Shown piece after piece: positions 18,977 to 36,414 of a DNA stretch of 64,000 nt (position 1 is its first letter; the number at the start of each line of letters is the position of its first letter). Under the pieces are notes generated by a model that did not search any database, had not been told where the DNA came from, and saw only the letters and a program-made list of their open reading frames with translations. The stretch is from Raoultibacter sp. (GTDB lineage: Bacteria; Actinomycetota; Coriobacteriia; Coriobacteriales; Eggerthellaceae): contig JAVVXN010000003.1 in NCBI GenBank assembly GCA_036651575.1, forward strand, positions 9,766 through 73,765, written 5' to 3'. The position numbers and the translations under genes were made by a program.

Positions 18977-19408
18977 ATGTTTCAAAAACTCGGGCGCAAA
19001 CTGTCTGCTTTTATGGTGGGACGCAACGGCGTCGATGGTCTGGGGCGGTTTTTTCTTGGCGTTGCTTTTTTCTTGCTGGTTGTGGGTCTTATTGTTCCCG
19101 ATCAGCTGATCCGTCAGATTATCACGGTGGTGTCGTTTGGCTGCATCCTTTATTGCTACTACCGTATGCTCTCACGTAAGGTGGGCAATCGCTACAAGGA
19201 AAACTGTGCCTATGTGCGTCTTCGGACAAAGCTTACCAAGCCGTTTCGCGGCCTTATAGCTCACGGTAAAGAATGGAAGACCTACCACAAAACACACAAG
19301 ATTTACCGGTGCAAAGAATGTGGGCAAAGCCTTCGCGTGCCGAAAGGCAAAGGTAAGATCAAGGTTGTTTGCCCCAAATGTAAAACCTCTTTTATTGCGA
19401 AGTCTTAA
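18977..19408 (+). CDS. small membrane protein with a C-terminal zinc ribbon
   Basis: RBS 'AGAGGGG' upstream, two hydrophobic helices, and 'CKECGQSLRVP..VVCPKCKTSF' (CxxC-N17-CxxC). Confidence 0.6.
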   Translation: MFQKLGRKLSAFMVGRNGVDGLGRFFLGVAFFLLVVGLIVPDQLIRQIITVVSFGCILYCYYRMLSRKVGNRYKENCAYVRLRTKLTKPFRGLIAHGKEWKTYHKTHKIYRCKECGQSLRVPKGKGKIKVVCPKCKTSFIAKS

Positions 19409-19695: not shown

Positions 19696-19721
19696 CGAAC
19701 ACCCTCTGGGTGTTCGTTTTT
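19696..19721 (+). terminator. intrinsic terminator after tRNA-Glu
   Basis: CGAACACCC-tct-GGGTGTTCG followed by TTTTT. Confidence 0.8.
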
Positions 19722-19908: not shown

Positions 19909-20298
19909 ATGAAGAAGCTTATCGCGCAATTGATGAAATTCGGCGTAGTCGGCGTGATCGCGTTTGTGATCGATTATGGTTTGTTGATCTTTTTGACAGA
20001 AGTGTTTTATGTCGACTATCTGATTAGCGCGACGATTTCCTTTACTGTTTCGGTTATCTTCAATTACGTTGCCAGCATGCGCTATGTTTTTTCTCACCGT
20101 GAAGGAATGAGCCGTCGTCGTGAATTTGTTATCTTTATCGTTTTGTCGGTATTGGGTCTTATCATCAACGATGTGGGCATGTGGGTCGGCGTGAGCCTTT
20201 TGGCGGTTGACTACCGTATCACCAAGATCGTTGCCACCGTCATCGTTATGCTCTGGAATTTCGTGACGCGCAAGATATTTCTCGATGGAGGACAGTGA
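19909..20298 (+). CDS. GtrA family membrane protein
   Basis: 129 aa with 4 TM helices. 'KFGVVGVIAFVIDYGLL' and 'WNFVTRKIFL' are typical of GtrA-like proteins. Start at ATG 19909. Confidence 0.8.
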   Translation: MKKLIAQLMKFGVVGVIAFVIDYGLLIFLTEVFYVDYLISATISFTVSVIFNYVASMRYVFSHREGMSRRREFVIFIVLSVLGLIINDVGMWVGVSLLAVDYRITKIVATVIVMLWNFVTRKIFLDGGQ

Positions 20299-20453
20299 GT
20301 CGGTTGACCCCTTGTTCTTCGACGCGGCGGGGAAGTGTCGGTGCGAAAGGGACCGGGCACATAGTTTTTTGCCGTAAAACGAGCAGAGCCGATGCATTTG
20401 GATACAATGAACGGGCGACTTAAACGCTAACAATTGCAAAAAAATGGGGGATT

Positions 20454-22301
20454 ATGAATCTTCATATAACAAAAAGGACCGCGCTTTTATTGGTTCTTGA
20501 TATTGCAGCAACGTATCTTGCTTATCTGCTGGCAGCTCTTTTGACCGATGTGTTTGCCGAAACGTTTGCGACGAATGAGATTTATTTTATGATAGGGGTG
20601 CTCGCTCTTATCAATATCGGCGTTCTGAGTCTTTTTCACCTCTACAATAATTTGTGGGAATACGCTTCCGTTGACGAGGCGATACAGATCGTCTTCGCCG
20701 TTGCACTCGCAACTCTTTTCGGCGCGGTATTTCTTTGGATTATCCAGGTACGTCTGCCGATCCGCGTCTTTTTCGTTGCCCTGTTCCTCCTTGTTTTTTT
20801 CCTGGGTGGTATTCGCATGATCTACCGTGTCGCGCGGCAGAAAAAACGTTCGATTGGCACGAATGCGCATGATCTTGAGCGTCCTCGCACCCTTATTGTG
20901 GGCGCGGGCGAAACGGGGTCGCTCACCATTGATCGCATGGCCTCAAAAGACCCGCTCATGGCCGGTATTCCCCTGGTTGCTACCGACGACGATCCCGCCA
21001 AGCGAGGGCTGCGCATCCATGGTGTGAAAGTCGCAGGAACAAGCGATGATATCATCGATCTCGTCGATCGATATGACATCGAGCAAATCGTGGTGGCTAT
21101 TCCTTCTTCAACACTCGAAGAACGAAAGCGTATTTATGCAATCTGCACTTTAACCGATTGTCAATTGCGGACCCTTCCCAACATTCGTGAACTTCGTATG
21201 GACGAACTCGACGAGGTAACGCTACGTGAAGTCGATGTGGCCGATTTGTTGGGGCGAGAAGAAATTGTTTTGGACACGCGAGCGGTGAGCGGTTATATAG
21301 CGGGAAAGACGATACTGGTTACCGGAGGCGGCGGATCGATTGGCAGTGAGCTTGCGCGGCAGCTTTGCGTGGTGGCTCCTTCGTGCATCGTCGTGTTCGA
21401 TATGTATGAAAACGATGCCTATATGCTTCGCAGTGAATTGCTCAGTCAGTACAGTGACGTTGCTGTTGTCATTGAAATCGGCAATGTGTGCGATAGCGCT
21501 CGCGTCAACGAGATATTCGCAAAATATCAACCGAGTGTCGTGTTTCACGCTGCTGCTCACAAACACGTTCCCCTTATGGAAGTATGCCCGCGCGAAGCGG
21601 TGCAAAATAATGTGTTTGGAACCCTGAATGTCGTCAGGGCAGCGGATGCTTCGGGGGTCAAACGCTTTATTTTTATCTCGACCGATAAAGCGGTGAACCC
21701 TACCTCGGTGATGGGTGCTACCAAGCGCATGGGTGAAATGGTCATGCAATACTACGCCCGTACTTCTCAAACCGTTTTTTCAGCAGTTCGGTTTGGCAAT
21801 GTGTTGGGCTCGAGCGGCTCGGTCATTCCTGTCTTTAAGCGCCAGATTGCCACCGGCGGTCCGGTGACGGTTACGCATCCCGAAATCGAGCGGTACTTCA
21901 TGACTATTCCCGAAGCGTCGCGACTGGTCATCCAGGCGGGTGGTATGGCGCAGGGGGGCGAGATATTCATTCTTGACATGGGGGATCCCGTCAAGATTCT
22001 TGATTTGGCAAAAAGCCTCATTCAGCTTTCGGGGCTGACGCTTGACACCGATATCAAAATCGAATTTACCGGTTTGCGGGGAGGAGAGAAGATGTATGAA
22101 GAGCTTCTCATGAATGAAGAAAGCACTATTCCTACCGGTAATCCCTCTATTATGGTGTCGACTGGCCAAGAGATCAGCTATGCCGAAGTGGCCACGAAGC
22201 TCGAAGAGCTCAAGGAGGCTATTGCGGCAACCGATGCTGTGGCTATTTGCGTGCTGGAAGAGGCTGTTCCCACGTACACGCAAACGCTCAACCGCGAATA
22301 A
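20454..22301 (+). CDS. membrane-anchored CapD/PglF-type nucleotide-sugar 4,6-dehydratase
   Basis: N-terminal TM helices, Rossmann motif 'LVTGGGGSIGSEL', and 'STDKAVNPTSVMGATKR'. Confidence 0.85.
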   Translation: MNLHITKRTALLLVLDIAATYLAYLLAALLTDVFAETFATNEIYFMIGVLALINIGVLSLFHLYNNLWEYASVDEAIQIVFAVALATLFGAVFLWIIQVRLPIRVFFVALFLLVFFLGGIRMIYRVARQKKRSIGTNAHDLERPRTLIVGAGETGSLTIDRMASKDPLMAGIPLVATDDDPAKRGLRIHGVKVAGTSDDIIDLVDRYDIEQIVVAIPSSTLEERKRIYAICTLTDCQLRTLPNIRELRMDELDEVTLREVDVADLLGREEIVLDTRAVSGYIAGKTILVTGGGGSIGSELARQLCVVAPSCIVVFDMYENDAYMLRSELLSQYSDVAVVIEIGNVCDSARVNEIFAKYQPSVVFHAAAHKHVPLMEVCPREAVQNNVFGTLNVVRAADASGVKRFIFISTDKAVNPTSVMGATKRMGEMVMQYYARTSQTVFSAVRFGNVLGSSGSVIPVFKRQIATGGPVTVTHPEIERYFMTIPEASRLVIQAGGMAQGGEIFILDMGDPVKILDLAKSLIQLSGLTLDTDIKIEFTGLRGGEKMYEELLMNEESTIPTGNPSIMVSTGQEISYAEVATKLEELKEAIAATDAVAICVLEEAVPTYTQTLNRE

Positions 22302-22372
22302 AGCTCTATTCGAGCGCATAAATCGGGCATATCCTGGTACTATAATACTTATAAGACGTCGAAAGGAATATC

Positions 22373-23500
22373 ATGGCGAACAAAAGCTTAGCGAAAAATC
22401 CTTCTGATTTGTGTGTGCTCGTTACGGGCGGTGCTGGTTTTATTGGAAGCCACACGTGCGTCGAGCTTTTGGAACAGGGATACCGCGTGGTGGTCGTCGA
22501 TAATCTGGGAAACTCAAGCGAGGAAGCGCTTGCGCGAGTGAGACGCATCACCGGAGTTGATGACGAGCGGCTTTCGTTTTATAAGGAAGATATCCTTGAT
22601 CGGGAAGCGCTGAATAGAATTTTCGATGAAAACGATATTGACGCGATGATTCACTTTGCGGGATTTAAAGCGGTTGGCGAAAGTATACAAAAACCTCTGG
22701 AGTACTACTGGAACAACATCACCGGAACGCTCGTTCTCTGTGAAGTTGCCCGCAGCCACGGGGTAAAAAATATCGTGTTTTCCAGCAGTGCAACCGTGTA
22801 TGGTAATCCCGAATTTGTGCCAATTACCGAAGAGTGCCCCAAGCATGAAGCGACGAATCCCTACGGGGAAACAAAGAATATGCTTGAGCGGATCTTGACC
22901 GATCTTTACGGCGGCGACGGTGAATGGAATATTATCTTTTTACGCTATTTTAATCCCATTGGAGCACATGAGAGCGGTCTGATCGGGGAAGATCCCAAGG
23001 GGATCCCCAACAATCTTATGCCCTATGTCGCGCAGGTTGCTTCGGGTAAGTTGGAATGCATCAAGGTATTGGGAGACGATTACCCGACCCCTGACGGTAC
23101 GGGAGTGCGCGACTACGTTCACGTGGTCGATTTGGCGCGGGGTCACGTAAGGGCGCTTGATTGGATGGGTGGAAAGTGTGGAGCAGAAAAAATAAGCGGC
23201 CCGGGATGTATTTCGGGTATTCCCGACGATGATGGCACCCGTCGCGGGGTGGGTATTTTTAATCTGGGAACCGGTACCGGATCGAGCGTATTCGATGTGA
23301 TTCACGCTTTTGAGCGGGTCTGCGGAAAAACGCTTCCCTATGAAGTGGTGTCTCGTCGTGCGGGGGATATCGCGTCGTGTTATGCGGCGTGTGAAAAAGC
23401 GCGAATTGAATTGGATTGGGTTGCCCGCTACGACCTTGAGCGTATGTGTACCGATGCGTGGCGTTGGCAATCAAATAATCCCAACGGCTATGAGGACTGA
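22373..23500 (+). CDS. galE: UDP-hexose 4-epimerase
   Basis: 'VTGGAGFIGSH', 'SSSATVYG' and 'NPYGETK'. A ~22-aa insertion precedes 'IFNLGTG' compared with E. coli GalE. Confidence 0.9.
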   Translation: MANKSLAKNPSDLCVLVTGGAGFIGSHTCVELLEQGYRVVVVDNLGNSSEEALARVRRITGVDDERLSFYKEDILDREALNRIFDENDIDAMIHFAGFKAVGESIQKPLEYYWNNITGTLVLCEVARSHGVKNIVFSSSATVYGNPEFVPITEECPKHEATNPYGETKNMLERILTDLYGGDGEWNIIFLRYFNPIGAHESGLIGEDPKGIPNNLMPYVAQVASGKLECIKVLGDDYPTPDGTGVRDYVHVVDLARGHVRALDWMGGKCGAEKISGPGCISGIPDDDGTRRGVGIFNLGTGTGSSVFDVIHAFERVCGKTLPYEVVSRRAGDIASCYAACEKARIELDWVARYDLERMCTDAWRWQSNNPNGYED

Positions 23501-24245
23501 GCGTGTGAACCAAAAAGTAAGGGGAGCGTGTCGTGTTTTGGTGATTGTGCCCGCGTATAATGAAGCGGGTAACATCCTTTCGACTCTTACTGATTTAAGG
23601 GAAAACACCGCCTATGATTGTCTGGTGGTCGATGATGGTTCAACCGATGAAACCTTGTTGCTCTGTCGGGAGTATGGCGTACCCGTTGTGAGCCTTCCGA
23701 TGAATCTTGGTATCGGGGGCGCGGTGCAGGCGGGGTATAAATACGCGTATCGAAACGCTTATGATGTTGCGGTTCAGTTTGATGGTGACGGCCAGCACGA
23801 TGCGACGTTTATCGTGTCTTTGGTTGCCGCTCTTGAAGATGAACATTTCAATATGGCGATTGGATCTCGATTTTCTTCTGATTTTGAAGATAATTTTAAA
23901 TCGACCCGGATGCGACGGGTCGGCATCAGGTGGTTATCGGGCGTCATTTATCTGTTTACACACCAGGTCATCACCGATCCTACCAGTGGTTTTAGAGCGG
24001 TGGATCGGGCGGTGATGAAGCTGTTTTGTGAGAGCTATCCCGTTGATTACCCCGAGCCGGAATCGGCGGTCGTGGTGCTTTCTCATGGTCTCAAAATAAA
24101 AGAAGTTGGGGTCATGATGAATGAACGTAAAAATGGGTTATCTTCCATCGGGTCGCTTTCGGCGATGTATTACATGGTCAAGGTTACCCTTGCGGTAATG
24201 ACGCAGAGCGCTTCGAGAGTAAGAGGGCATAAAAAATGTCTTTAG
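23490..24245 (+). CDS. soluble-type GT2 polyprenyl-phosphate sugar synthase (PpgS/DPM1-like)
   Basis: 'VIVPAYNEAGNI', 'VVDDGSTDET' and 'FDGDGQHD'. The start overlaps the end of galE (ATG 23490, or GTG 23505). A small membrane partner gene follows it. Confidence 0.8.
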   Translation: MRTERVNQKVRGACRVLVIVPAYNEAGNILSTLTDLRENTAYDCLVVDDGSTDETLLLCREYGVPVVSLPMNLGIGGAVQAGYKYAYRNAYDVAVQFDGDGQHDATFIVSLVAALEDEHFNMAIGSRFSSDFEDNFKSTRMRRVGIRWLSGVIYLFTHQVITDPTSGFRAVDRAVMKLFCESYPVDYPEPESAVVVLSHGLKIKEVGVMMNERKNGLSSIGSLSAMYYMVKVTLAVMTQSASRVRGHKKCL

Positions 24246-24589
24246 TGCTGAGATTGTTCATCGGTATTGTCTGTTTCTTTTTTTTGATATTTGTCTTAAT
24301 GATGATTAGGCGCGAACGATTTATTTTGAAATATGCGCTCGTTTGGCTTGTTGCGGGTGTGGTGGGTGTGGTCGTTGCTGTTTTCCCTGGTTTGGCTGAG
24401 GTGGTGTCGTCATTTTTTGGCTTCGAAACAACCTCGAATTTTATTTTCTTTCTCGTTCTCTGCTTCCTGCTTGCGGTTTGCCTGTCGTTAAGCGCTATCG
24501 TTTCAAAGCAATCGCTTCGCATTAAAGATTTGGTGCAAGAAATCGCCCTGTTAAATGTTCGGGATGAAAAATCCGAGAATGATCAATAG
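24236..24589 (+). CDS. small 3-4 TM membrane protein, DUF2304-like
   Basis: 117 aa. 'MMIRRERFILKYALVWL' matches my recollection of DUF2304. The start overlaps the GT2 stop, suggesting translational coupling. Confidence 0.6.
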   Translation: MSLVLRLFIGIVCFFFLIFVLMMIRRERFILKYALVWLVAGVVGVVVAVFPGLAEVVSSFFGFETTSNFIFFLVLCFLLAVCLSLSAIVSKQSLRIKDLVQEIALLNVRDEKSENDQ

Positions 24590-24660
24590 AGCGGGTTGAT
24601 CTAGGGCATCCGTTTTCTCTGGTGCGCGAACGCAAGTGGGTAAAAGCGGCATCCCGAAAT

Positions 24661-25044
24661 TTAGGCGAACACAACCTTTCGGTACAGGATAAAATTCCAG
24701 AGCGTTATGCAGACCATGGTGATCAGTTTGGCGATAATTGACATGAGACCGGCATCGATGAGCAGAGAAATCGTTATGGTTGAAAAAACGGTATTGAACG
24801 TGAAGAGAATCAGATAGAGCACGACGCTCTTGGCGGGATTCGAAGAGCTTTTGAACGCATACGTGCGGTTCATGAGGAAGTTGAATGTGGTGGCAACAAC
24901 AAGGGCGCTGATGTTGGAAAAAGCCACGGGCCAGCCAAACAACGCGTAGAGCAGTTGGAAGAGACAGAGTTCAAGGGCTGCAGATGAGCCACCGATAAGA
25001 AGGTATTTTATTCCCTGTTGCTTGATTGATTTGTAATCGACCAT
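24661..25044 (-). CDS. GtrA family membrane protein (second copy)
   Basis: 'IKYLLIGGSSAALELCLFQLLY' and 'WNFILYRKVVFA'. The start is refined to 'MVDYKS' (25044), which has an upstream AAGGGA RBS. Confidence 0.8.
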   Translation of the reverse strand: MVDYKSIKQQGIKYLLIGGSSAALELCLFQLLYALFGWPVAFSNISALVVATTFNFLMNRTYAFKSSSNPAKSVVLYLILFTFNTVFSTITISLLIDAGLMSIIAKLITMVCITLWNFILYRKVVFA

Positions 25045-25398
25045 GCCATCCCTTAGCTGCTGTGCGGCGGTGGTAAAACATGCCACTTGTGTTAGGTATC
25101 CGATTTGGATTTATAGACCATCATGATACCATCGGCCGCATCGGTTGCTGCGGCTTTTACGCGGGCTGCTCGGCGGGTTCCACAATATGGCTACACGGAC
25201 GCAGCAGGGGTTAAAGCGAGGGGGTTTGCCCTCCTTTTCGGTCGTGTCTCTTTACGGGTGGTTGTTTTTTCTTGTTCCTTTTGTTTGCTCGTCGGCGCGG
25301 TGGGGTATGATTGCCCTGCGTGCTGAAAAGCAGGCTTTATGTTTCCGGCTTTCTTGTATCGAAGAAAAAGAAGCTGGCGTGCGCTAACGGAGGGTTTC

Positions 25399-26346
25399 AT
25401 GGATTTATCGCTGATTGTGCCAGCTTATAACGAAGAAGGTAATATCCGACCGTTTTTTGATGCCGTGCAAGAGGCATTTTCCGGGCTGGATAAACGGTGT
25501 GAATTAATTTTTGTCGATGACGGCAGTGCGGATCAAACGGCGGAGGTAATGCGTTCGCTCCTCTCTCGACAAACAGACCGTCTCTCAATCAAAGTGGTTA
25601 TTTTTTCACGAAATTTTGGGAAGGAAGCGGCTTTGTATGCGGGGTTGCGCCATGCGGACGCCGATCTTGTCGGTTTTATCGATTCCGATCTGCAGCAGCT
25701 TCCCGAAACCGTTGTTGAGATGGTCCATATTTTAGATACGCATCCCGAATATGACTGCGTTGCTGCGTATCAACGTGATCGCAACCGGAGCGCCCTGATC
25801 GACTGGTGTTCAAAAGCTTTCTACAAGCTGCTGGGGGTTTCTTCCGGCATGACGGTTATTACCGACGCAAGTGATTTCAGGGTCTTTCGACGCACTGTCG
25901 CGCAAGCTCTGTTGTCGGTGGATGAGTGCTACCGTTTCTCGAAGGGTATATTTTCCTGGATCGGTTTTAATACGTATGCGTTTGCCTATACCCCGAGTTC
26001 TCGTTTTGAGGGAACGTCAACCTGGTCTTTCAGGAAGTTGGTACGCTATGCCTGGAACGGCTTGCTGTCGTTTACGGCCTTTCCCCTTAAGATAGCAACC
26101 TATTTGGGGTTTTTGGCCTTTGCCGCTTCCTCGATTTATCTGGTTGTGGTACTGACTCAGAGGATAATCTGGGGTGTTGACGTACCTGGTTATGCCACTA
26201 TCGTCGCTCTTATTTTGCTGCTCGGCGGCATCCAGCTTCTGGTGTTGGGGATTATCGGGGAATACTTGGCGCGCGTGTACACACAGGGCAAGCAGAGACC
26301 TCTATATATAGAGAAGGCCTATCTCGAGGGACCTGAGGACGAATAG
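25399..26346 (+). CDS. GtrB/CsbB-like GT2 polyprenyl-phosphate glycosyltransferase
   Basis: 'LSLIVPAYNEEGNI', 'FVDDGSADQT' and 'DSDLQ', plus two C-terminal TM helices. The RBS 'AACGGAGGG' precedes ATG 25399. Confidence 0.85.
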   Translation: MDLSLIVPAYNEEGNIRPFFDAVQEAFSGLDKRCELIFVDDGSADQTAEVMRSLLSRQTDRLSIKVVIFSRNFGKEAALYAGLRHADADLVGFIDSDLQQLPETVVEMVHILDTHPEYDCVAAYQRDRNRSALIDWCSKAFYKLLGVSSGMTVITDASDFRVFRRTVAQALLSVDECYRFSKGIFSWIGFNTYAFAYTPSSRFEGTSTWSFRKLVRYAWNGLLSFTAFPLKIATYLGFLAFAASSIYLVVVLTQRIIWGVDVPGYATIVALILLLGGIQLLVLGIIGEYLARVYTQGKQRPLYIEKAYLEGPEDE

Positions 26347-26372
26347 CTGATACGTGAAGCGCGCATCAGCTA
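26344..26372. other. hairpin between convergent GT2 and yfhO-like genes
   Basis: TAGCTGAT (26344-26351) pairs with ATCAGCTA (26365-26372) and spans both stop codons. Confidence 0.35.
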
Positions 26373-29164
26373 TTCGAAGCGGTGAGCTTACTTGTTGGGG
26401 GAGCGGGAGGGTTCCTTTTCCGACGCCATGCCGAAAAGCATGAGGTCGCGCCGATGCACAGGCCGGTGACAAGGGAAATCAGTGCTCCGGTGTTGAAGCT
26501 TTGGTTGGTATAGGTAAGCTCGACGGTGTGATCTCCCGGTTCCAAGTATATGCCGGTAAAAATATCATGCACAGAAATGGTGTCTTGCGCTTTGCCGTCG
26601 ACGATGCAGGTCCATCCGCGATTGTACGGTACGGAAAGCGATAAGATACCTACGGATTGATTATTGATCGTTCCTTTGATCTTGTTGTTGGTAATGGAGA
26701 GATTTTCGAGATTGTAAAGGTTTCTTTGGTCTGTCCATTGTTCGAGGTTTCGATACGAGCTGAACTGGAGCTTGGCGTTGCTGACCGTATAGGAACCCTC
26801 GCTGATACCGACGGTGATTTTTCCGGAAGCTTCCGGAGGGCAGAACGCATACGTGTCGGTCGGATATCCCCAGCGGAAGTCGTGAGCCGGGGACCAGTAT
26901 TGTTCGCCGTTTACAGACATCAAAAAAGAAGTTCCGTCCTGCTTGGTAGCCGTAAACGAAAGAAGGTATTCTCCGGCATCTGTTTGTGCAGAAAGGGGTA
27001 TGGTTATTGCTGCATCATCGTGATCTGCGACCAAGGTGCCATCGGCGAAAGAACAGTTTGAAAACGTGATGTTGCTGTTGGCGAGATCGATGGTTTGTAT
27101 TGTTTCTCTCAGGTCAATCGAGGCTTGGGGCAGGTGGGGAAGAGCGGCCGGGTCATCGATTGCCGCCGTCTGGAGGAGTGCCGCGTCTTTTTCTGCATAC
27201 GACCACGAATCGTAGGAACTTGACGGCGCAGACGAGTCATACCACAGGTCAATGCCGTTCGCGTATGTGTTTTCAAGAATGTCAGTGCCCTGAAACGAGG
27301 AGGGTTGATATCCATAGGTATTGCTGGTTTTATTCGTGTTGAATTTATAGCGCACGCCCCATGCATTTTCCAGGAAGAGACGGTGCCCGAATCCTTGATA
27401 GTATGACGCCGTTTTCGTTGTTGGAGTCACGCAATGGTCGATTTTGAGCCACCGGCTGATATCTTTCGATATCAGGGAATTATATGCGCTGACGGGGTAT
27501 GTTCCGAGCAGCCATGATCTGTTTTCGAATCGTTCCTCGAAACCATTGTCGTTGAAATTTCGAGACGTTTCTTCGTCGTTTGTGCGGAAGAATTCGTCGG
27601 GGGGCACGTTGAGGGTGCGATATGCCTGCTGGGTTGCTTCGTCTCCCTCGAAAAGTTGATTGAGTTCTTGGGAATCTTGCGTGGTTCCAATACCGACGTT
27701 GTTGCGAAACCCCGATGCTAGGGCGTAGGGGCCATAGGGCATAGCGATCAGCGTGGCGCATATGAAAGCGGTCAGCGCAGCGCCTTTGAGCAGTTTTATC
27801 CGGTGCGGTATCGTTGTTTTTTGTAGGAAGAATAGGCACGCGATGAAGGCAAACTGCAGAAAGAAAAACAGTAAGTCAGACACGCAAATTGGTGGAAAAT
27901 AATAGCTCCCGGCGCTCGATGCGTCGAGGACGCGATAGTCGTGCGTGGCGATACATACGGCCAGGACAACGCCGATTCCTCCAAGGACACATACGCGGAT
28001 TCTTTTTTGAGCAATAAGGGCTTCAAGCCAGTTGGGCAGGGCATAGGCGATGACGAAAAAGATGAGGTAGCACCACCGGTTTGAAAGGTAAGAAAAGCCA
28101 TTCATGACACTTGAAATGGCCGGAATCATCCAAAGGATGAGGAAGGTGACGGCAAGGATGGTCTTTCTTTTTGTGGGGGTGTCGACTTTCTTGAAATCAA
28201 TGAAAAAAACGAGAAGGACAACGAGGGGCAAAGCGTAGGTTTGCGACTCGGCGGCGAAAAAGGAACCTCCCTTGAAAAAAAGGATTTCAGGAAGGATTTT
28301 GAGAAATTCCAGAGAGGGAAGCAGGGTGAAAGATGAAGGAATTGGAGTGCGGTCGGCATTGAGAAAAGCCATGACCGAGGGGAAAAAAGCAACGGCTGCA
28401 AGCAAAATTGATACGATTACAATACCGGTGAGCCGCCCCAATTTTTTGACATAGATCAGGATGCTTCGAGAAGTTTTCCCCGGCAGTTTTTGGTATAAAA
28501 ACACCAAAGCAAATACGAGGTAGAACAAACAATTGATATACCCGAAGTAAAAGCTATTGGCAAAGCTGAAGGCAACTGCCACGCAGAGCGGAAGCCATGA
28601 GCGCGTCTTTTCATAGTGGTTAAACGCCATAATTACCAAAGGGGGCCAGATCATGGCATCGGTCATGAAGTCAAAGGCAAAGGAATTGTCGATAAACCAA
28701 AAAGAGCAGCCGTAGACGATTGCTGCGATACTGGCAGAAAAATCCGATTTGCGTTCTTGTTTCAGCAGGGCATACAGCAAGACCATGCAAAGTGTTTCTT
28801 TGACGATACTGAAGATGAGGCGCCATAGTTGCGTCGAATAAAAATCGCCCCCCGCTACACCGAAGAGTGCTTTTATGGCAAATTGGAGGTAGAAAAAAGG
28901 TGACGTTGAATAGTAGTATGAAAATTCCGAATACAGGTCACCCCCCAGTCCATATTCCCACGACCAAAACAGATTACCCGCAAGGATGTTTCTTTCAAGG
29001 AGTGAGATGGAAGGGATAAGCTGCGTGGTCGAGTCGCCGCCGAAGTAGGTGAACACCGCAGATTCGACTCCGAAAAATTGAGGAAGAAAAAGTGCATGCG
29101 AAGCAACTGCAAGCGCAAAGAACGCGACTATGGTCAATGCGGTGCGCACAACTTTGCTGTTCAT
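26366..29164 (-). CDS. YfhO family polytopic membrane protein (putative extracytoplasmic glycosyltransferase)
   Basis: ~930 aa with many N-terminal TM helices, a large C-terminal extracytoplasmic domain and a final TM helix. The start is set at 'MNSKVVRTAL' (29164). The upstream part of ORF ..29545 overlaps the divergent gene start and looks non-coding. Confidence 0.75.
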   Translation of the reverse strand: MNSKVVRTALTIVAFFALAVASHALFLPQFFGVESAVFTYFGGDSTTQLIPSISLLERNILAGNLFWSWEYGLGGDLYSEFSYYYSTSPFFYLQFAIKALFGVAGGDFYSTQLWRLIFSIVKETLCMVLLYALLKQERKSDFSASIAAIVYGCSFWFIDNSFAFDFMTDAMIWPPLVIMAFNHYEKTRSWLPLCVAVAFSFANSFYFGYINCLFYLVFALVFLYQKLPGKTSRSILIYVKKLGRLTGIVIVSILLAAVAFFPSVMAFLNADRTPIPSSFTLLPSLEFLKILPEILFFKGGSFFAAESQTYALPLVVLLVFFIDFKKVDTPTKRKTILAVTFLILWMIPAISSVMNGFSYLSNRWCYLIFFVIAYALPNWLEALIAQKRIRVCVLGGIGVVLAVCIATHDYRVLDASSAGSYYFPPICVSDLLFFFLQFAFIACLFFLQKTTIPHRIKLLKGAALTAFICATLIAMPYGPYALASGFRNNVGIGTTQDSQELNQLFEGDEATQQAYRTLNVPPDEFFRTNDEETSRNFNDNGFEERFENRSWLLGTYPVSAYNSLISKDISRWLKIDHCVTPTTKTASYYQGFGHRLFLENAWGVRYKFNTNKTSNTYGYQPSSFQGTDILENTYANGIDLWYDSSAPSSSYDSWSYAEKDAALLQTAAIDDPAALPHLPQASIDLRETIQTIDLANSNITFSNCSFADGTLVADHDDAAITIPLSAQTDAGEYLLSFTATKQDGTSFLMSVNGEQYWSPAHDFRWGYPTDTYAFCPPEASGKITVGISEGSYTVSNAKLQFSSYRNLEQWTDQRNLYNLENLSITNNKIKGTINNQSVGILSLSVPYNRGWTCIVDGKAQDTISVHDIFTGIYLEPGDHTVELTYTNQSFNTGALISLVTGLCIGATSCFSAWRRKRNPPAPPTSKLTASNS

Positions 29165-29465
29165 GGCCCTCCACGATCTTTCGAACCGATCTTGTCTTCG
29201 CTGGGTGCTAATGGATACAGACCAGGGTACCATAAAAGAAAACAGAGCCATCTTTATCTCTCTTATTCCATTAAGGCGTGTCCTCTGTGGGGTGTCTCGC
29301 CCTTGCGCTTGCGAGTCCGTACGCACGTGCGAGGAATTATTCCCAAGGATAGTCCTTGGATTTTTCCTGATAATGCCTCTGTGCTGCCGGTTTCCGATGG
29401 GGTAAGGAGATATCATGACGGGGTTCGAGCTTTGGTTGTGCAGCTCGCAAAAATGAGGAGGCACC

Positions 29466-31187
29466 ATGACTATTCGTGTTTTAGCCCGCGGGTCCCTGTC
29501 AATTTTTCTAGCAGCGTTGATGGTTGTTTTCTTTGCGTATCCCACACCGTCTGCGTGGGCTGTTGATAACGATCAAAAAAAATCAGCATCTGAAGAAGAG
29601 ATTGAACGTGCGTTTGATAACGGTGAAATAAAAACCGAGATTCCGCCCGCTTTACGCGAGCAAAGCCAAAACAGCATTCCTTTAGCCCGTTCTAATAAAG
29701 CAATTAAAACCCTTGCAGGAGAAAGCTTGTACGATACGGCTGCTGCCGAAGCACGCTATGCCTACAGCGCTTCTTCCTGGGCTATCGTTGCAAGCGGGGA
29801 AAGCAGCGTTGACGCTTTGGCGGCAACTTCGCTTGCCGGAGCACTTGACTGTCCTATTTTGCTGACGTCGAAAAGCTCGCTTCCCGCTGCTACCTCTGAT
29901 GCTTTGGCATCCCTTGGTGTGACCAACGTTATTATTACGGGTGGCGAAGGGGTGATTTCGGCATCGGTGGCAGATGAGATCAGCGCCCAGGTGGGTACGA
30001 GCCCCACCCGTCTGTTCGGTCAGGATCAATACGATACCCAGCTTGCGATCTACGCCTACGGGGCTGACCGGTCCCTGTGGGGATCTCAGGCGATCGTCGT
30101 TTCCGGTGTGGCGGGCCAATTCGCCGATGCACTTTCGGCAGCACCGGTGGCTTTCGCGCAAAAGGCGCCGATATTTTTCGTGGATGAGACCGGATCGTTG
30201 CCGAACAAGACTATTCAGACGCTTTATGCGGCAAGCACCCTTTCGTCTGCGGTTGCCGTGGGGGGCTCAGCTGTTGTGTCTGAGTGGACGATGGGAGCCC
30301 TTGAAGCCCTTGTTGTCAATCACGGGAGCGCTCGCTCAAACGTGGTGCGGCTTTCCGGCGAAACGCTCTACGATACCAGCTTGGAAGTTGCTTTTTGGGC
30401 GGTTGAAAACGCTATTTTATCCTGGGATAACGCGGCGTTTGCCACCGGGAAGATGCCCTATGATGCCCTCGCCGGCAGCGTGGTGCAAGGGCGCGATCGC
30501 TCGGTGCTTTTGTTGGCGGATCCTGGGTATCGCACGGCTTTCGATGTTTTAAGCAGGCACTCCGTGACAACTTATAAATACTTTGGGGGGAAAGCGGTGT
30601 TTAGAAACGCCGACAAAGTTTCGTACGCTTTAAAGCTTGGCTTTCCCCTGTCGGACATAGAAGGGCTTATCGTCTATCTCGATGCGGGGCATGGCTGGAA
30701 TAGTTCTAACAACGGTGTATTCGACTATGGAGCTTGGGGATGTGGCTACAACGAATATGATTTGAACGCTGAATTGACGGGTCAGATTGCACCGGCTCTG
30801 CGTAGCTGGTATGGCCTGGACGTATACGTCAACGATGATGGTGGCTACTATGCGTACCGTCAAAGTGAGGCGTACGCGATGGATTGCGGCGTGTTCGTGT
30901 CGATCCACTTCAATTCGGGTGGTGGCTCGGGGACGGAAAGCTATATCCATTCCTATAATGCCGCTCCCGGTGCATCCGTCTTGCAGTCGCGGGTTCATCC
31001 CGCCCTTATTTCCGGGGTTGGTCTTGGTGACCGCGGCATGAAGAATGAAGAATTTGCCGTATGCGGGGGAAAGGTGCCTGCTGTGTTGCTTGAGGTTGCC
31101 TTTATTGATAACCAAAATGACATGAATGCGTATCAGTCAAGAAAAGGTAATGTGGCCGGAAAAATCGCCGAAGGAATAGCATCGTAG
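29466..31187 (+). CDS. secreted N-acetylmuramoyl-L-alanine amidase with three CWB2 cell-wall-binding repeats
   Basis: Signal peptide '..PTPSAWA|VD'. CWB2-like repeats ('LAGESLYDTAAAEA..ASGESSVDALAATSLAG..CPILLT'). Amidase_3 motifs 'VSIHFNSGGGSGTESY' and 'LLEVAFIDN'. Confidence 0.85.
   Translation: MTIRVLARGSLSIFLAALMVVFFAYPTPSAWAVDNDQKKSASEEEIERAFDNGEIKTEIPPALREQSQNSIPLARSNKAIKTLAGESLYDTAAAEARYAYSASSWAIVASGESSVDALAATSLAGALDCPILLTSKSSLPAATSDALASLGVTNVIITGGEGVISASVADEISAQVGTSPTRLFGQDQYDTQLAIYAYGADRSLWGSQAIVVSGVAGQFADALSAAPVAFAQKAPIFFVDETGSLPNKTIQTLYAASTLSSAVAVGGSAVVSEWTMGALEALVVNHGSARSNVVRLSGETLYDTSLEVAFWAVENAILSWDNAAFATGKMPYDALAGSVVQGRDRSVLLLADPGYRTAFDVLSRHSVTTYKYFGGKAVFRNADKVSYALKLGFPLSDIEGLIVYLDAGHGWNSSNNGVFDYGAWGCGYNEYDLNAELTGQIAPALRSWYGLDVYVNDDGGYYAYRQSEAYAMDCGVFVSIHFNSGGGSGTESYIHSYNAAPGASVLQSRVHPALISGVGLGDRGMKNEEFAVCGGKVPAVLLEVAFIDNQNDMNAYQSRKGNVAGKIAEGIAS
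29709..30203 (+). repeat. 495-bp segment identical to 31565-32059 (copy 1)
   Basis: Boundaries found by direct comparison. The identical translations in several frames of the ORF track (for example the minus-strand ORFs starting 'MRESHRCCRK..') imply 100% DNA identity. Confidence 0.9.
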
Positions 31188-31219
31188 TGAAGAACAGTAA
31201 AAGAGAAGGTGGTCAATCG

Positions 31220-33277
31220 ATGAAGTCATATCGAATTACCGTATCCGTTTTATGCGCTTTCGTTTTGGTCTGTACTCCTCTTTCCGCTGCGCTTGCTCAA
31301 GATATTCAACCGGATGTTTCCGGGGGAAATATGACGGGGCTTGTTGGTGATACGGAGAGTTCAAAGCAGCAAGCCGATGAGGGGTCAGTGCCCGCTGTTG
31401 TACAGCAAGCTTCGGGAGAGCAGCTTGAGGGCAGTGCGGCGTCGAGCGTATCCGATGCCGAGATTGCCGAAACACTCGCTACGGCAGATATCGTGGGAGC
31501 ACATGAAGGGGCAGCAGCGGGTGTTGCGAGCACCCTTGACCTTTTGGCTTCGGCGGGAGTAACCACCCTTGCAGGAGAAAGCTTGTACGATACGGCTGCT
31601 GCCGAAGCACGCTATGCCTACAGCGCTTCTTCCTGGGCTATCGTTGCAAGCGGGGAAAGCAGCGTTGACGCTTTGGCGGCAACTTCGCTTGCCGGAGCAC
31701 TTGACTGTCCTATTTTGCTGACGTCGAAAAGCTCGCTTCCCGCTGCTACCTCTGATGCTTTGGCATCCCTTGGTGTGACCAACGTTATTATTACGGGTGG
31801 CGAAGGGGTGATTTCGGCATCGGTGGCAGATGAGATCAGCGCCCAGGTGGGTACGAGCCCCACCCGTCTGTTCGGTCAGGATCAATACGATACCCAGCTT
31901 GCGATCTACGCCTACGGGGCTGACCGGTCCCTGTGGGGATCTCAGGCGATCGTCGTTTCCGGTGTGGCGGGCCAATTCGCCGATGCACTTTCGGCAGCAC
32001 CGGTGGCTTTCGCGCAAAAGGCGCCGATATTTTTCGTGGATGAGACCGGATCGTTGCCGGATGCGACGATCCGGGTGCTTTTTGCGGCAGCGCCTCTTTC
32101 GTCTATGGTTGCCGTGGGGGGCTCAGCTGTTGTTGCCGAACGGACGATAGGCGCGCTTCAGGCGATCGTTGTTGCTCATGGGCACAGCCGCTCAAATGTT
32201 GTGCGTCTGTTCGGTAATAGCCTCTACGATACGAGCGCAAATGTGGCTGCCTGGGCGGTTGAAAACGCTATTTTATCCTGGGATAACGTGGCGTTTGCCA
32301 CCGGGAAGATGCCCTATGATGCCCTCGCTGGTAGCGTGGTACAGGGCCGGGATCGTTCGGTTTTACTGCTGGTGGACGAGGGGAGCATGCAGGGGCTTGA
32401 CGCCGTCGTGTCTTCCGGTGCCTCCATCTCCGGTTTGAAGTTTTTAGGGGGAACCTCGGTGGTGAAAGCTGAAACGCGTCGCAGTATTTGCTCTGCGTTA
32501 GGCCTGCCTTATCTGTCTGTCAGCTCGCTTTACCACGACATTTCCTTGGCGCAATTTGCCCAAATAGAATCGAGTGCATCAGGAAAATATACCGTTGATG
32601 AAATATTGAGCAGTATGGATCCTGCGCGTTTCGCGGAGGGTACTTCGGGTTTTTACCAATTTGCGGATTTATCGCAGGGCTATTCGGGGATGACAGCGGA
32701 TCAGCTCGATTCGTTTATCGACGCAAACGTTTCATATCAAGAGAAAAGAAATGGCGTGAGAAGCAAGCTGAGGGGTAGCGGTGCCTCCTTTATCGCCGCA
32801 GCGAAGAAGTATCAAATCAATGAGGTGTACCTGCTCGCTCATGCGGCTCTCGAGAGTGGATGGGGTTGTTCTGCGCTGGCTCAAGGAACCGTGAAAGGCT
32901 ATGAGGGTTATCTGAATTTCTACGGTATCGGCGCCTATGATCTCGATCCGAAGAATGGCGGGGCTGCCTTGGCAAAAGATCAGCAGTGGGATACTCCCGA
33001 AAAAGCCATCCTGGGTGCTGCCCGTTGGATATCGCGCAACTACATTCATCCCACCGTTGCCTCAGCGACTGTTTCCGGGCCGCAAAATACGCTGTGGCAG
33101 ATGAAGTGGGATGTTCGGCGTGCGGTTGCCGAGGGCGGTGTTTGGCATCAGTATGCGACGAGCAGAACGTGGGCGACCGGTATCGCTTCGGTTATGAACG
33201 ATTTTTACCGGCAGAGCAACCATTCTTTTGAAGAAACGGGTCTGTCTTTTATCGTCCCCGCTTTTGCGCAGCAGTAA
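31220..33277 (+). CDS. secreted N-acetylglucosaminidase (GH73-like) with CWB2 repeats
   Basis: Signal peptide '..LSAALA|QD', an acidic linker, CWB2 repeats, and a C-terminal 'LLAHAALESGWG..NFYGIGAYD' glucosaminidase motif. ATG 31220 follows the RBS 'GAAGGTGG'. Confidence 0.85.
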   Translation: MKSYRITVSVLCAFVLVCTPLSAALAQDIQPDVSGGNMTGLVGDTESSKQQADEGSVPAVVQQASGEQLEGSAASSVSDAEIAETLATADIVGAHEGAAAGVASTLDLLASAGVTTLAGESLYDTAAAEARYAYSASSWAIVASGESSVDALAATSLAGALDCPILLTSKSSLPAATSDALASLGVTNVIITGGEGVISASVADEISAQVGTSPTRLFGQDQYDTQLAIYAYGADRSLWGSQAIVVSGVAGQFADALSAAPVAFAQKAPIFFVDETGSLPDATIRVLFAAAPLSSMVAVGGSAVVAERTIGALQAIVVAHGHSRSNVVRLFGNSLYDTSANVAAWAVENAILSWDNVAFATGKMPYDALAGSVVQGRDRSVLLLVDEGSMQGLDAVVSSGASISGLKFLGGTSVVKAETRRSICSALGLPYLSVSSLYHDISLAQFAQIESSASGKYTVDEILSSMDPARFAEGTSGFYQFADLSQGYSGMTADQLDSFIDANVSYQEKRNGVRSKLRGSGASFIAAAKKYQINEVYLLAHAALESGWGCSALAQGTVKGYEGYLNFYGIGAYDLDPKNGGAALAKDQQWDTPEKAILGAARWISRNYIHPTVASATVSGPQNTLWQMKWDVRRAVAEGGVWHQYATSRTWATGIASVMNDFYRQSNHSFEETGLSFIVPAFAQQ
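31565..32059 (+). repeat. 495-bp segment identical to 29709-30203 (copy 2)
   Basis: Offset is 1856 bp. It encodes the same 165 aa ('TLAGESLYDT...FFVDETGSLP') in both hydrolase genes. A second, near-identical block lies at ~30397-30500 and ~32253-32356. Confidence 0.9.
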
Positions 33278-34925
33278 CCGTTTTGTGAGGGTAGGCGTGT
33301 CGGGCTGATTGTGCGTTCGGGCTCAAAAACGCCGTTGCTATCACAATGGGTAAGGCGAGATGGAAGGGCAACATGTAGCGGAACTCGCAGTAGTAGGGTG
33401 CTGCAACCAGCATGGTTGCCCAGAGGGCGATCAGGGGAACGTAGGGGAGTATCAATTCTTTTTGAGAGCGCATCCAGCGCACGAGAGCGAGACCTACTAC
33501 CAACCATACGGCTGCTGCAATGCTGAATAGAGGTGACACAAAGCTGCTCGTGCGCATGTTGCCGTAGTTGCTATCCTGATTCCCACCCACTATTGGTATC
33601 GGCGCCACTTCGTAGAGGAGGTTTCGGCCCTCCTCTTTCGTGATGCCGCTTGTGGTGACAACCCAATCCTGCGTCTCGATATTCCAGTATCCTTCGGTTT
33701 CTCTCAGCCACGCTTCGAAATAGGTTTTCGGATTCTCGAGTCCGATTTCAAGCCAGAGTTTCAGAAACTCTGGCTTGTGCGAATCGAGCCATTCGTCGTT
33801 GAAGGAAGGATCGTATTTAACGGGATTGGTGGATATTGGATTGTAGCGTTGAGCCATCTGGTCAAGGTCGACCAGATGGGCTAATTTTTCTTCCTGTTCC
33901 GGCGTCATCGACCCGTTGTTGGCTACGACGGCCGAGATCTGCTGCAGCGGAATCCCTACCGATTCCCTGAAAGGCGAAGGGGCGATGCTGCATGCGGTGA
34001 AGAGTGGTCCGGTAATTACTAAAACGACCGGAATGACGATCAGGAGGGGAATGAGTCGTTTGAGGTGACGGCGGTATACGACCGCCAGACAAAGTGCGCA
34101 TGCTGCCATAGCGAAAACGCCATTATTCCGCAGTAGACAGATAGCAAAGGCGAGTGCGGTAAGGCGTAGGCACGTTGTCGGTGATTCCAAAAGCCTTCCC
34201 TTGCTAAAGGCGATTTCAAAGAGTAAAAGAATAAACAAAAGCATACAGAGCGAAAACGGGATGTCTTTCCACATGGTGGTCGCGTATTTCGCAATAATTG
34301 GGTTAAAGGTGAAAAAGGCGAGGGTTGCAAGGGCGACCAAATCGGGTGCCCCCATTTTTTTGATCCAATAGCACGCGTATGCGCAGACAGCTGCCGTGAA
34401 GATGAGCTGGATAAACAGATACAGCGCGGTTCCTATCGCCACATTTCCCAGCGCGTTTCCGAGAATCACAAAGGGGGATATGAGCAGGGTGAACATGACC
34501 GGATGTGCATTCGACCAGGGCAGTTGGCCGAGTGCTATCTTGATCGAATCGACGCTGTCGCCGGAATAGGAGCCGGGAAAATTAACAAGAAAGGTGATAA
34601 AGAACGACAGAAATAAAACGGCAAAAGCGATGCCTCCTCTGTTTTTTGAAACCGCCGTTTCCGCAAAGGTGATTTGGTGCGTGTCAAGCCAATACGTCAC
34701 AAGGGTAAGTCCCGCGAAAAGAAGCAGGGAAAAGGCGCAAAACGACCAAAAGCACTCCGAAAAACCGGTGCCGTCAAGCCAGTGGCCCAAAACCCACGAA
34801 GCTGAAAGCAGGACGGAAAAAATCGCCAAGAGGGCGTAGTGTGCGGGCGTTGAAAAAACCCGACTCTTGATTTGTGCGAGAAAATTATGCGAAGCATCAT
34901 CGAGGCCAAAAGTTGTTTTGGACAT
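33249..34925 (-). CDS. uncharacterised polytopic membrane protein (DUF6020-like, possible GT-C-type enzyme)
   Basis: 558 aa, at least 10 hydrophobic helices, a ~150-aa hydrophilic loop ('PEQEEKLAHLVD...WNIETQDW') and 2 terminal TM helices. The family assignment is from memory only. Confidence 0.6.
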   Translation of the reverse strand: MSKTTFGLDDASHNFLAQIKSRVFSTPAHYALLAIFSVLLSASWVLGHWLDGTGFSECFWSFCAFSLLLFAGLTLVTYWLDTHQITFAETAVSKNRGGIAFAVLFLSFFITFLVNFPGSYSGDSVDSIKIALGQLPWSNAHPVMFTLLISPFVILGNALGNVAIGTALYLFIQLIFTAAVCAYACYWIKKMGAPDLVALATLAFFTFNPIIAKYATTMWKDIPFSLCMLLFILLLFEIAFSKGRLLESPTTCLRLTALAFAICLLRNNGVFAMAACALCLAVVYRRHLKRLIPLLIVIPVVLVITGPLFTACSIAPSPFRESVGIPLQQISAVVANNGSMTPEQEEKLAHLVDLDQMAQRYNPISTNPVKYDPSFNDEWLDSHKPEFLKLWLEIGLENPKTYFEAWLRETEGYWNIETQDWVVTTSGITKEEGRNLLYEVAPIPIVGGNQDSNYGNMRTSSFVSPLFSIAAAVWLVVGLALVRWMRSQKELILPYVPLIALWATMLVAAPYYCEFRYMLPFHLALPIVIATAFLSPNAQSARHAYPHKTVTAAQKRGR

Positions 34926-35126: not shown

Positions 35127-35270
35127 GCCCTCTTGCTGTCGATGGTCTTTGAGCGGGCAGCGATTGCCGGTGTCTGGCCCGCTCGATTTCATTGCTGCAA
35201 GAGGTTATCTATACGTTTTTTGCGATAGGGCACGATGGTGTGTCTGTCGCAACAAGGCTCAAAGGAAGTC

Positions 35271-36335: not shown

Positions 36336-36414
36336 GTATTCTCGGGCAGTTGATGCCGGTGAGATGGATTGTTTTGGCAAAATGTCCGGAGTTTCCCGTT
36401 TGAATGGTGTGTAT

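Follow-up and report, generated by a model that had tools for sequence, protein, structure and literature searches.

Glycosylation outside the cytoplasmic membrane with lipid-linked sugars is well established as a mechanism class, and two modules of this type in one genome are ordinary; several parallel modules are the norm, with three in Bacillus subtilis and three in L. lactis (PMC8035078). The CsbB-GtcA-YfhO systems of Bacillus subtilis, Staphylococcus aureus and Listeria monocytogenes add N-acetylglucosamine (GlcNAc) to lipoteichoic acid (LTA) or wall teichoic acid, and they share with the GtrA-GtrB-Gtr(type) systems of phages and Shigella a GtrB-type family 2 glycosyltransferase (GT2) and a GtrA protein with four transmembrane (TM) helices. 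In GacI-GacJ-GacK-GacL of Streptococcus pyogenes and WpsA-WpsB of Lactococcus, a TM-less GT2 related to dolichyl phosphate mannose synthase (DPMS) is coupled to a DUF2304 protein with three TM helices, while PpgS (Rv3631), Rv3632 and Rv3779 of Mycobacterium tuberculosis place galactosamine on arabinogalactan. GacI is anchored and activated by GacJ, WpsA by WpsB, and PpgS by Rv3632 (bioRxiv 10.1101/180810; PMC10821137). The streptococcal Pgf (PgfS-PgfM1-PgfE-PgfM2) and GtrB-PgtC2 systems, which also glycosylate outside the membrane, use a GtrB-type GT2, an epimerase and a GT-C glycosyltransferase of the YfhO family. Here we compare these systems with a glycopolymer locus in a 64-kb stretch of DNA from a gut bacterium of the family Eggerthellaceae; this whole stretch is called the window below. 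The interpretation we prefer, and hold with moderate confidence, is that two multi-component transmembrane glycosylation systems are encoded in the locus and decorate a ribitol-phosphate wall polymer made by a Wzx/Wzy pathway.

Reasoning from families, folds, conserved residues, gene neighborhoods and fusion proteins, we infer the following route. On the cytoplasmic face, each GT2 would move one sugar from a UDP-sugar to undecaprenyl phosphate (C55-P). One synthase would be the self-anchored GtrB-type enzyme; the other would be the TM-less DPMS-like GT2, docked on the DUF2304 protein with three TM helices as in GacI/GacJ and WpsA/WpsB. The TM-less GT2 would probably be fed with an N-acetylhexosamine (HexNAc) donor, possibly a UDP-GalNAc/GlcNAc epimer from the neighboring GalE, which has a cysteine at its gatekeeper position. 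The GtrA proteins would then flip the lipid-linked sugar across the membrane, and on the outside a GT-C enzyme would transfer it to the surface polymer, the presumed catalytic residue being the invariant aspartate of the first outside loop (D44 in YfhO and D123 in the DUF6020 protein). In this scheme the GtrB-type synthase would feed YfhO, and the GT2/DUF2304 pair would feed DUF6020.

Families were assigned by matches to Pfam and NCBIfam profiles, judged against the curated cut-offs, and TM helices were taken from a hydropathy scan. The GtrA, YfhO, DUF2304, DUF6020 and GT2 assignments proposed by an earlier sequence-only reading of the window all scored far above the Pfam gathering scores in these profile searches, and the gene coordinates it gave were correct.

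The module composed of the GtrB-type GT2, GtrA and YfhO is of the CsbB-GtcA-YfhO kind, found here in an unstudied phylum-level lineage. Its GT2 (25399-26346, plus strand; PF00535) matches the structure of Synechocystis GtrB (PDB 5ekp) over its full length (residues 2-305; E-value 4.4e-66) and also matches ArnC (2e-33). It carries a DSDLQ motif and two C-terminal TM helices at residues 234-252 and 264-282, as the sequence-only reading had described for a GtrB/CsbB-type enzyme. We regard it as a putative C55-P-hexose(NAc) synthase. The YfhO gene (26366-29164, minus strand) is convergent with the GtrB-type gene, and 19 nt separate the two stop codons; the GT2 and YfhO genes are likewise adjacent in csbB-yfhO (Table 1, PMC8035078). 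The YfhO protein matches PF09586 from end to end (5.5e-100; 336.4 bits against a gathering score of 28.5; model positions 2-835 of 835) and is about 28% identical to Bacillus YfhO.

On the other side of the GtrB-type gene lies GtrA2 (24661-25044, minus strand; PF04138 at 7e-18), a putative flippase with four TM helices. The GtrA encoded beside the GtrB-type gene in three loci of related genomes (L083-L085; loci from relatives are given L numbers and individual proteins P numbers) scores 131-147 bits to GtrA2. Judged by sequence, GtrA2 is the orthologue of the single GtrA that adjoins the GtrB-type gene in these relatives. In several Clostridium species, GtrA and YfhO are fused in one protein (P0275-P0287). 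The window contains what a CsbB/GtrA/GT-C system is made of: an anchored GT2, a GtrA with four TM helices (two of them), and a GT-C protein with an outside loop that bears a conserved acidic residue (YfhO). It differs from the CsbB-GtcA-YfhO systems in its host, an actinobacterium of the class Coriobacteriia, and in its acceptor, which is probably a Wzy-made ribitol-phosphate polymer and not poly-glycerol-phosphate LTA. To our knowledge, no such system has been studied in Coriobacteriia.

Sequence searches against the PDB gave only two chance-level matches for YfhO (influenza haemagglutinin, E-value about 0.055) and no match for the DUF6020 protein. Because these searches returned nothing meaningful, we predicted the structures of both proteins with AlphaFold2. 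The YfhO model (33-sequence alignment; pLDDT 89.1, pTM 0.90) clearly has a GT-C fold. Its best Foldseek match in the PDB is AftD (E-value 1.5e-7), followed by EmbA/B, STT3, ArnT, Pmt4 and ALG9, with probabilities of about 1.0. D44, within a GGD..Q motif, is invariant, and D169 is nearly so. The C-terminal outside domain of the model is a beta-sandwich of about 410 aa, followed by a final TM helix; in Foldseek it matches carbohydrate-binding modules (CBM6, CBM15 and CBM35).

The DUF6020 protein (33249-34925, minus strand) is a polytopic membrane protein that matches PF19484 at 2.9e-44 (151.9 bits against a gathering score of 28.3; model positions 183-598 of 604). Its AlphaFold2 model was built from a 40-sequence alignment (pLDDT 88.7, pTM 0.89) and compared with 350,542 PDB chains in Foldseek. 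The top 16 matches are all GT-C enzymes (Pmt4, ALG3, STT3A/B, PglB, ArnT, AglB and DPY19), with probabilities of 0.38-1.0; the local alignments to Pmt4 cover 276-299 columns at a root-mean-square deviation of 4.9-7.2 A. The model is consistent with a GT-C fold, a putative assignment that draws on the ranking of the matches and not on high scores. The hhalign comparison of the DUF6020 and YfhO profiles gave a weak match (E-value 1.7e-4, probability 49%) over the HP..Y / ..D core, in which K220-D221 of DUF6020 is aligned with the FMTD motif of YfhO. Twelve columns are invariant among the 40 sequences, including D123, K220, D221, E321, Q328, K370, R516 and Y517. The topology was deduced from the AlphaFold2 helices and the positive-inside rule, with the Lys/Arg clusters at 83-93, 189-190, 242-254, 284-290 and 483-490 and the C-terminus placed inside. 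Under this topology the invariant polar residues would all face the outside, and D123 would belong to the first conserved outside loop.

The sequence-only reading had ascribed big external domains to both large membrane proteins. This description suits YfhO, but DUF6020 has a modest, helical outside domain of about 150 aa. A GT-C-like fold with a conserved acidic loop residue was recovered for both proteins, with weak scores in the case of DUF6020, in which D123 and D221 are the residues concerned; the outcome that the sequence-only reading had named as its refutation thus did not occur. Neither GT-C candidate had a PMT_2 match in Pfam at an E-value of 0.01 or below; the only families found were YfhO and DUF6020.

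The module built on the GT2/DUF2304 pair is a hybrid. It belongs to a run of genes in the order GtrA1, dehydratase, GalE, GT2 and DUF2304. The GT2 (23490-24245, plus strand; PF00535 at 6.3e-23) has no TM helix, is of the GacI/WpsA/PpgS type, and has Pyrococcus DPMS (5mlz) as its top PDB match (3.4e-11). Its DGDGQ motif (D98, D100 and Q102) fits the DxDxQ motif of WpsA and DPMS (PMC10821137). Directly downstream is the gene for a DUF2304 protein of the GacJ/WpsB/Rv3632 type (24236-24589, plus strand; PF10066 at 6.6e-25) with three TM helices; its start codon lies before the GT2 stop, so that the two genes share 10 nt, and is served by an AAGAGGG Shine-Dalgarno motif. The same pair of genes occurs in L081-L085 and L234. 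The GT2 is a putative C55-P-HexNAc synthase, and the DUF2304 protein, by analogy, would be its membrane anchor and activator.

With its TM-less DPMS-like GT2 and directly downstream DUF2304 partner, this module resembles the Gac and Wps systems, but it lacks the Wzx flippase and the PMT_2 GT-C enzyme of the Gac type. The adjoining genes of the flippase class encode GtrA-family proteins, whereas GacK is Wzx-type; the only Wzx-like candidate of the window is encoded together with Wzy and Wzz. As GT-C enzyme the module has DUF6020 (or YfhO) for its candidate, whereas GacL belongs to the PMT_2 family (Table 2, PMC8035078). A further difference is the presence of genes for GalE and a 4,6-dehydratase upstream. 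Such a 'combination' of components had been predicted in a 2021 review. The M. tuberculosis system shares with the window an actinobacterial host and a GT2 with a DUF2304 partner, and PpgS (NF058614) is the top NCBIfam model for the TM-less GT2. However, the score of 94.7 bits is under the cut-off of 370, so that the GT2 is not a PpgS equivalog, and this lineage has no arabinogalactan, the acceptor of the M. tuberculosis system. The donor may be a further likeness: a HexNAc, possibly GalNAc, is plausible given the adjacent GalE.

The sequence-only reading had the soluble GT2 translationally coupled on both sides. The coupling to DUF2304 is real in that the 10-nt overlap exists, but coupling to galE is uncertain, as it depends on the ATG at 23490; the two genes nonetheless belong to the same run. 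Homologues of the GT2 are 228-240 aa long and span 89-93% of the 251-aa reading from this ATG, with the first ~16 residues uncovered. Alternative starts at TTG 23538 and GTG 23541 follow a AAGGGGAG Shine-Dalgarno motif and would leave a 37-nt gap after galE. Since the lengths of the homologues fit these positions better than they fit the ATG reading, the true start is probably one of the two.

GalE (22373-23500, plus strand; TIGR01179, 431.8 bits against a cut-off of 262.3) is a UDP-hexose 4-epimerase. It resembles human GALE (416.8 bits) more than it does E. coli GalE (about 375 bits). Its Cys336 aligns with Cys307 of human GALE, the gatekeeper position at which a cysteine permits UDP-GlcNAc/GalNAc epimerization; E. 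coli GalE has Tyr299 there. The enzyme is thus probably bifunctional for hexoses and HexNAc, which makes it a candidate donor supplier for the TM-less GT2 and a HexNAc epimer donor plausible. The suggestion of a galE-derived UDP-HexNAc epimer in the sequence-only reading therefore retains its plausibility, but in L083, L084, L085 and L234 galE and the GT2-DUF2304 pair are unlinked. Compared with all aligned solved GalE structures, this GalE has an insertion of about 26 Gly/Cys-rich residues (approximately 266-291), which splits the profile match in two.

The run begins with GtrA1 (19909-20298, plus strand; PF04138 at 4.8e-26), a putative polyprenyl-phosphate-sugar flippase with four TM helices; both GtrA genes of the sequence-only reading are thus corroborated. 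Between GtrA1 and galE lies a gene absent from that reading (20454-22301, plus strand; PF02719 at 1.4e-116 plus CoA_binding_3). It encodes a UDP-GlcNAc 4,6-dehydratase of the PglF/CapD/WbpM type, anchored in the membrane by four N-terminal TM helices; matches to the PseB and FnlA models are below the cut-offs. The dehydratase has an uncertain role in the modules; supply of a 6-deoxy-HexNAc precursor is one possibility.

We considered a recent duplication of the module parts and rejected it: the two GtrA proteins are 20% identical, and the GT2s share 30% identity over 178 aa. The parts that the sequence-only reading called duplicated are present as two of each functional class, but not as a sequence duplication; as far as these identities tell, the two GtrAs and the two GT2s are ancient paralogues.

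DUF6020 is a large family. Among 1.84 billion representative proteins, our profile search detected 13,003 clusters (at 50% identity) with an E-value of 0.001 or below, and 10,373 with 1e-10 or below. The family is common in gut Clostridia and Coriobacteriia, and a full-text literature search found no mention of it. The GT-C families listed for systems of this type are YfhO, PMT_2, Scs3p and 'none', and DUF6020 is not among them (PMC8035078). One protein (P0394) fuses a GtrA domain (residues 12-122) to DUF6020 (169-710). Four long DUF6020 proteins, inspected in a search for GT2-DUF6020 fusions, have N-terminal extensions without a Pfam match. No prophage-borne DUF6020, as would be expected of gtrABC-like serotype conversion, was found in a scan of viral contigs with a single peptide pattern, which makes this a weak negative.

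The pairing of synthases with GT-C enzymes was assessed from gene neighborhoods. Loci were taken from species-representative genomes, 80 for DUF6020 (77 scored) and 68 for YfhO (65 scored), and the neighbors were typed by phmmer against the window proteins. A GtrB-type GT2 is located within 4 kb in 48 of 65 YfhO loci and within 6 kb in 11 of 77 DUF6020 loci; for the DPMS-like GT2, the respective values are 5 of 65 and 31 of 77. The Fisher p-values for these two comparisons are 3.6e-13 and 5.8e-6, respectively, and overstate independence because the loci are related by descent. Immediate adjacency was scored for the DUF6020 loci only: the immediate neighbor is a DPMS-like GT2 on the same strand in 24 of 77 and a GtrB-type GT2 in 1 of 77.

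DUF6020 is usually partnered by a conserved GT2 that is about 315 aa long and has two TM helices, a class that does not occur in the window. Its top PDB relative is Pyrococcus DPMS (5mlz) and not GtrB, as is the case for the TM-less GT2 of the window. A hidden DUF2304 gene in the ~300-nt space between the GT2 and DUF6020 genes of other genomes was rejected, as jackhmmer found only 7 and the GT2s in question carry their own two TM helices. Operons of GT2, DUF2304 and DUF6020 genes occur in L020 and L025, and an Eggerthellales metagenome-assembled genome (MAG) has a GT2-GtrA-DUF6020 operon (L013).

In L083 and L084 (about 50% identity), two CWB2 genes, the GT2-DUF2304 pair, a divergently oriented DUF6020-YfhO operon, and the GtrB-type gene convergent with YfhO and accompanied by GtrA are all contained in about 7 kb. 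The dual set is a conserved unit in the clade of closest relatives. The convergent adjacency of the GtrB-type and YfhO genes is kept in the window and in L083, L084, L085 and L086. The gene neighborhoods of relatives and the fusion proteins tie the parts together and, with the GT-C folds, support the two parallel decoration modules that the sequence-only reading had envisaged.

A candidate locus for the acceptor polymer follows at 35235-51456 (plus strand). It encodes a membrane GT2, two LicD proteins, two further GT2s, two GT1s, TarI, a TarJ-like dehydrogenase, Wzy, Wzz and a Wzx-like protein, and is syntenic in Slackia piriformis (L002); Slackia piriformis YIT 12062, which can be cultured, has the same gene set. 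TarI and the TarJ-like dehydrogenase provide for the synthesis of CDP-ribitol. TarI scores 320.9 bits with the ribitol-5-phosphate cytidylyltransferase model (cut-off 166), and its gene is followed by that of the TarJ-like dehydrogenase; Wzy scores 119 bits with the model for oligosaccharide repeat unit polymerases (cut-off 40). The acceptor we favor is the ribitol-phosphate-containing, Wzx/Wzy-assembled wall polymer encoded here, which is probably also the ligand of the two CWB2 hydrolases whose genes separate YfhO from DUF6020. A glycan acceptor is favored because the outside domain of YfhO resembles carbohydrate-binding modules.

Several points weigh against our interpretation. The Foldseek E-values of the DUF6020 model are 0.04-0.4, with none at or below 0.001, and the TM-score is about 0.3. 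The flippase activity of GtrA proteins is itself a deduction in the literature. The linkage of galE and the dehydratase gene to the GT2 is peculiar to this window. No gene for a phosphoglycosyl transferase (Bac_transf, MraY/WecA-like) or for an LCP ligase is located within the 64-kb window, and it is therefore by proximity that the modules are linked to the downstream polymer; the primer and the ligase must be encoded elsewhere, or the polymer must be primed unconventionally. With regard to the wiring, GT2, DUF2304 and YfhO genes form one operon in L085 (Slackia-like) and in L234 (from a widespread Coriobacteriia lineage), and in both DUF6020 is located 7-10 kb away among CWB2 genes. In L085, YfhO is followed by an opposite-strand GtrB-type gene and then GtrA; the sequence of L234 ends inside the YfhO gene. 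The window layout looks like the L085/L234 arrangement with the YfhO-GtrB-GtrA block inverted, in which case the pairing may be crossed or shared. Finally, the YfhO-family proteins PgtC2 and PgfM1 glycosylate Ser/Thr-rich disordered regions in streptococci (bioRxiv 10.1101/2024.05.05.592596).

Some of these points bear on rival explanations. Because the GT2-DUF2304-YfhO operon exists in L085 and L234, where the DUF2304 and YfhO genes overlap, local synteny fits more than one pairing of synthases and GT-C enzymes. The same parts might be wired differently, with the GT2/DUF2304 pair feeding YfhO and the GtrB-type synthase feeding DUF6020, or with one pool of lipid-linked sugar serving both GT-C enzymes. 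In L083 and L084, where it lies divergently to the DUF6020-YfhO operon, the GT2/DUF2304 pair could serve either GT-C enzyme or both; relatives show a single GtrA for both; and shared donors are documented, as GttA of Listeria 4b feeds GtlB and GttB (Table 1, PMC8035078). We nevertheless consider such wiring rather unlikely. Across the families YfhO goes with the GtrB-type GT2 and DUF6020 with the DPMS-like GT2, the convergent GtrB-YfhO adjacency is kept, and the GT2-DUF2304-DUF6020 operons of L020 and L025 join the pair to DUF6020. On the strength of the family-wide neighbor statistics, we favor the pairing of the GtrB-type synthase with YfhO and of GT2/DUF2304 with DUF6020.

The missing phosphoglycosyl transferase, in a window that otherwise holds a complete Wzy-type locus, would be explained if the GT2/DUF2304 pair primed an oligosaccharide or polymer on undecaprenyl monophosphate. 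WpsA/WpsB, homologues of GacI/GacJ that act in this way in making the Lactococcus pellicle, start a C55-P-linked repeat unit that is later transferred by a GT-C enzyme (PMC10821137). Here the downstream GT1, GT2 and LicD proteins would elongate the chain, the Wzx-like protein, Wzy and Wzz would export and polymerize it, and DUF6020 or YfhO, like WpsJ, would ligate the completed chain to a different wall polymer; a second DUF6020 paralogue at the end of the Wzy locus of Slackia piriformis (L002) agrees with this. We find this route improbable, however, since Wzy-pathway primers are often encoded elsewhere in the genome and it is GtrA-type proteins, and no Wzx, that are linked or fused to DUF6020 and YfhO. 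A lone GT2-DUF6020 gene pair lies among housekeeping genes on a Ruminococcaceae contig (L235), and tandem DUF6020 paralogues beside a single GT2 (e.g., L018, L023 and L061) fit one donor with several acceptor-specific transferases. Proteins might also be the acceptors: one or both modules could O-glycosylate extracytoplasmic proteins, with the adjoining CWB2 proteins as candidate targets. The top NCBIfam models are PgfS for the GtrB-type GT2 (236.8 bits) and PgfM2/PgfM1 for YfhO (80.6/60.6 bits), the window encodes an epimerase, as the Pgf cluster does in PgfE, and in many relatives the CWB2 and GT-C genes alternate. However, these scores are 2- to 20-fold under the equivalog cut-offs of 500 (PgfS), 1500 (PgfM2) and 1400 (PgfM1). 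No Ser/Thr-rich repeat was seen on reading the two adjacent CWB2 translations, nor was a Ser/Thr-rich acceptor found nearby; the outside domain of YfhO resembles carbohydrate-binding modules; and the genes sit within a wall-polymer locus. We give protein glycosylation little credence and retain the decoration of the wall polymer by two systems.

Two genes that the sequence-only reading had not described are located between the YfhO and DUF6020 genes. Both encode CWB2 hydrolases with three PF04122 repeats, an amidase (29466-31187, plus strand; Amidase_3) and a glucosaminidase (31187-33277, plus strand; Glucosaminidase). Their probable ligand is the polymer under synthesis or decoration. In other Eggerthellaceae loci as well (L083-L088, L101, L104, L138 and L234), YfhO, DUF6020 and GT2 genes are interspersed with CWB2 genes, and the encoded CWB2 proteins include glucosaminidases, amidases, YkuD transpeptidases and DUF285/leucine-rich repeat proteins. 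This suggests a functional tie between the decoration systems and the anchoring of CWB2 proteins. A literature search on CWB2 and teichoic acids in Eggerthellaceae returned nothing relevant. In an extended proposal, DUF6020 would be a large, unrecognized family of GT-C glycosyltransferases with a dedicated DPMS-like GT2 and GtrA, and the sugars added by the two modules would set the binding of CWB2 proteins and, through it, their anchoring and activity. We regard this combined proposal as speculative and quite unlikely; if true, the sugars of the wall polymer would form a glycan code for the display of surface (CWB2) proteins in gut Coriobacteriia.

What is new is a first testable functional assignment for DUF6020, an uncharacterized family of more than 10,000 clusters. 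Extracytoplasmic glycosylation of wall polymers would also be extended to the Eggerthellaceae, whose envelope glycopolymers are essentially uncharacterized. Decorations of wall polymers usually determine phage receptors, antibody and lectin recognition, and the targeting of autolysins, and are therefore relevant to how phages and the host view these gut bacteria.

Over 460 nt, the two CWB2 hydrolase genes are 100% identical (29709-30168 and 31565-32024), and the following ~330 nt are 68-98% identical; the shared stretch covers the CWB2 repeats. This points to a recent gene conversion or duplication between neighbors whose catalytic domains differ (amidase and glucosaminidase).

Within the polymer locus, we considered and rejected a third lipid-sugar synthase, namely the membrane GT2 encoded divergently from DUF6020 at 35235-36335. 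Its top PDB match is PcManGT (6yv7), a minimal cellulose-synthase-like enzyme, its top NCBIfam models are EpsD and PgaC, and it shows no similarity to the GT2 class that partners DUF6020. The gene at 47357-48886 encodes a protein of 509 aa with about 13 TM helices and no Pfam or NCBIfam match, and its homologue in Slackia piriformis directly follows Wzy and Wzz. A flippase of the Wzx type, divergent in sequence, is its probable identity. The genes at 41903-45220 encode LicD2, a class-V aminotransferase, and a protein in which a glycerol-3-phosphate-cytidylyltransferase-like domain is fused to a GFO/IDH/MocA oxidoreductase. The PhnW/AepZ-like and BhcA-like matches of the aminotransferase are below the cut-offs. 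The aminotransferase and the fusion recur in L084, and the fusion is also found in Slackia (L002). This set may make a CDP-activated amino-polyol or a similar phospho-substituent; we know of no named pathway that fits the three genes.

The glycopolymer locus spans approximately 19.9-51.5 kb and is flanked by fatty-acid synthesis genes and a DEAD-box helicase gene upstream and by polA downstream. Promoter and terminator scans of the window gave counts at or below the shuffled expectation and were uninformative on operon boundaries, with the exception of a terminator-like hairpin at 19696-19716, just upstream of GtrA1. The hairpin follows a gene (18977-19408) whose small product has a single TM helix at the N-terminus and a CxxC...CxxC zinc ribbon at the C-terminus. 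The Obg protein of the window is 92-94% identical to those of Raoultibacter sp. MAGs and 73-78% identical to those of Gordonibacter and Slackia. Because the housekeeping protein Obg (55486-56931) reaches 94% identity with the nearest MAGs, yet the nearest DUF6020 and YfhO proteins in species-representative genomes are only about 50% identical, the surface-glycan locus appears to be hypervariable among closely related species.

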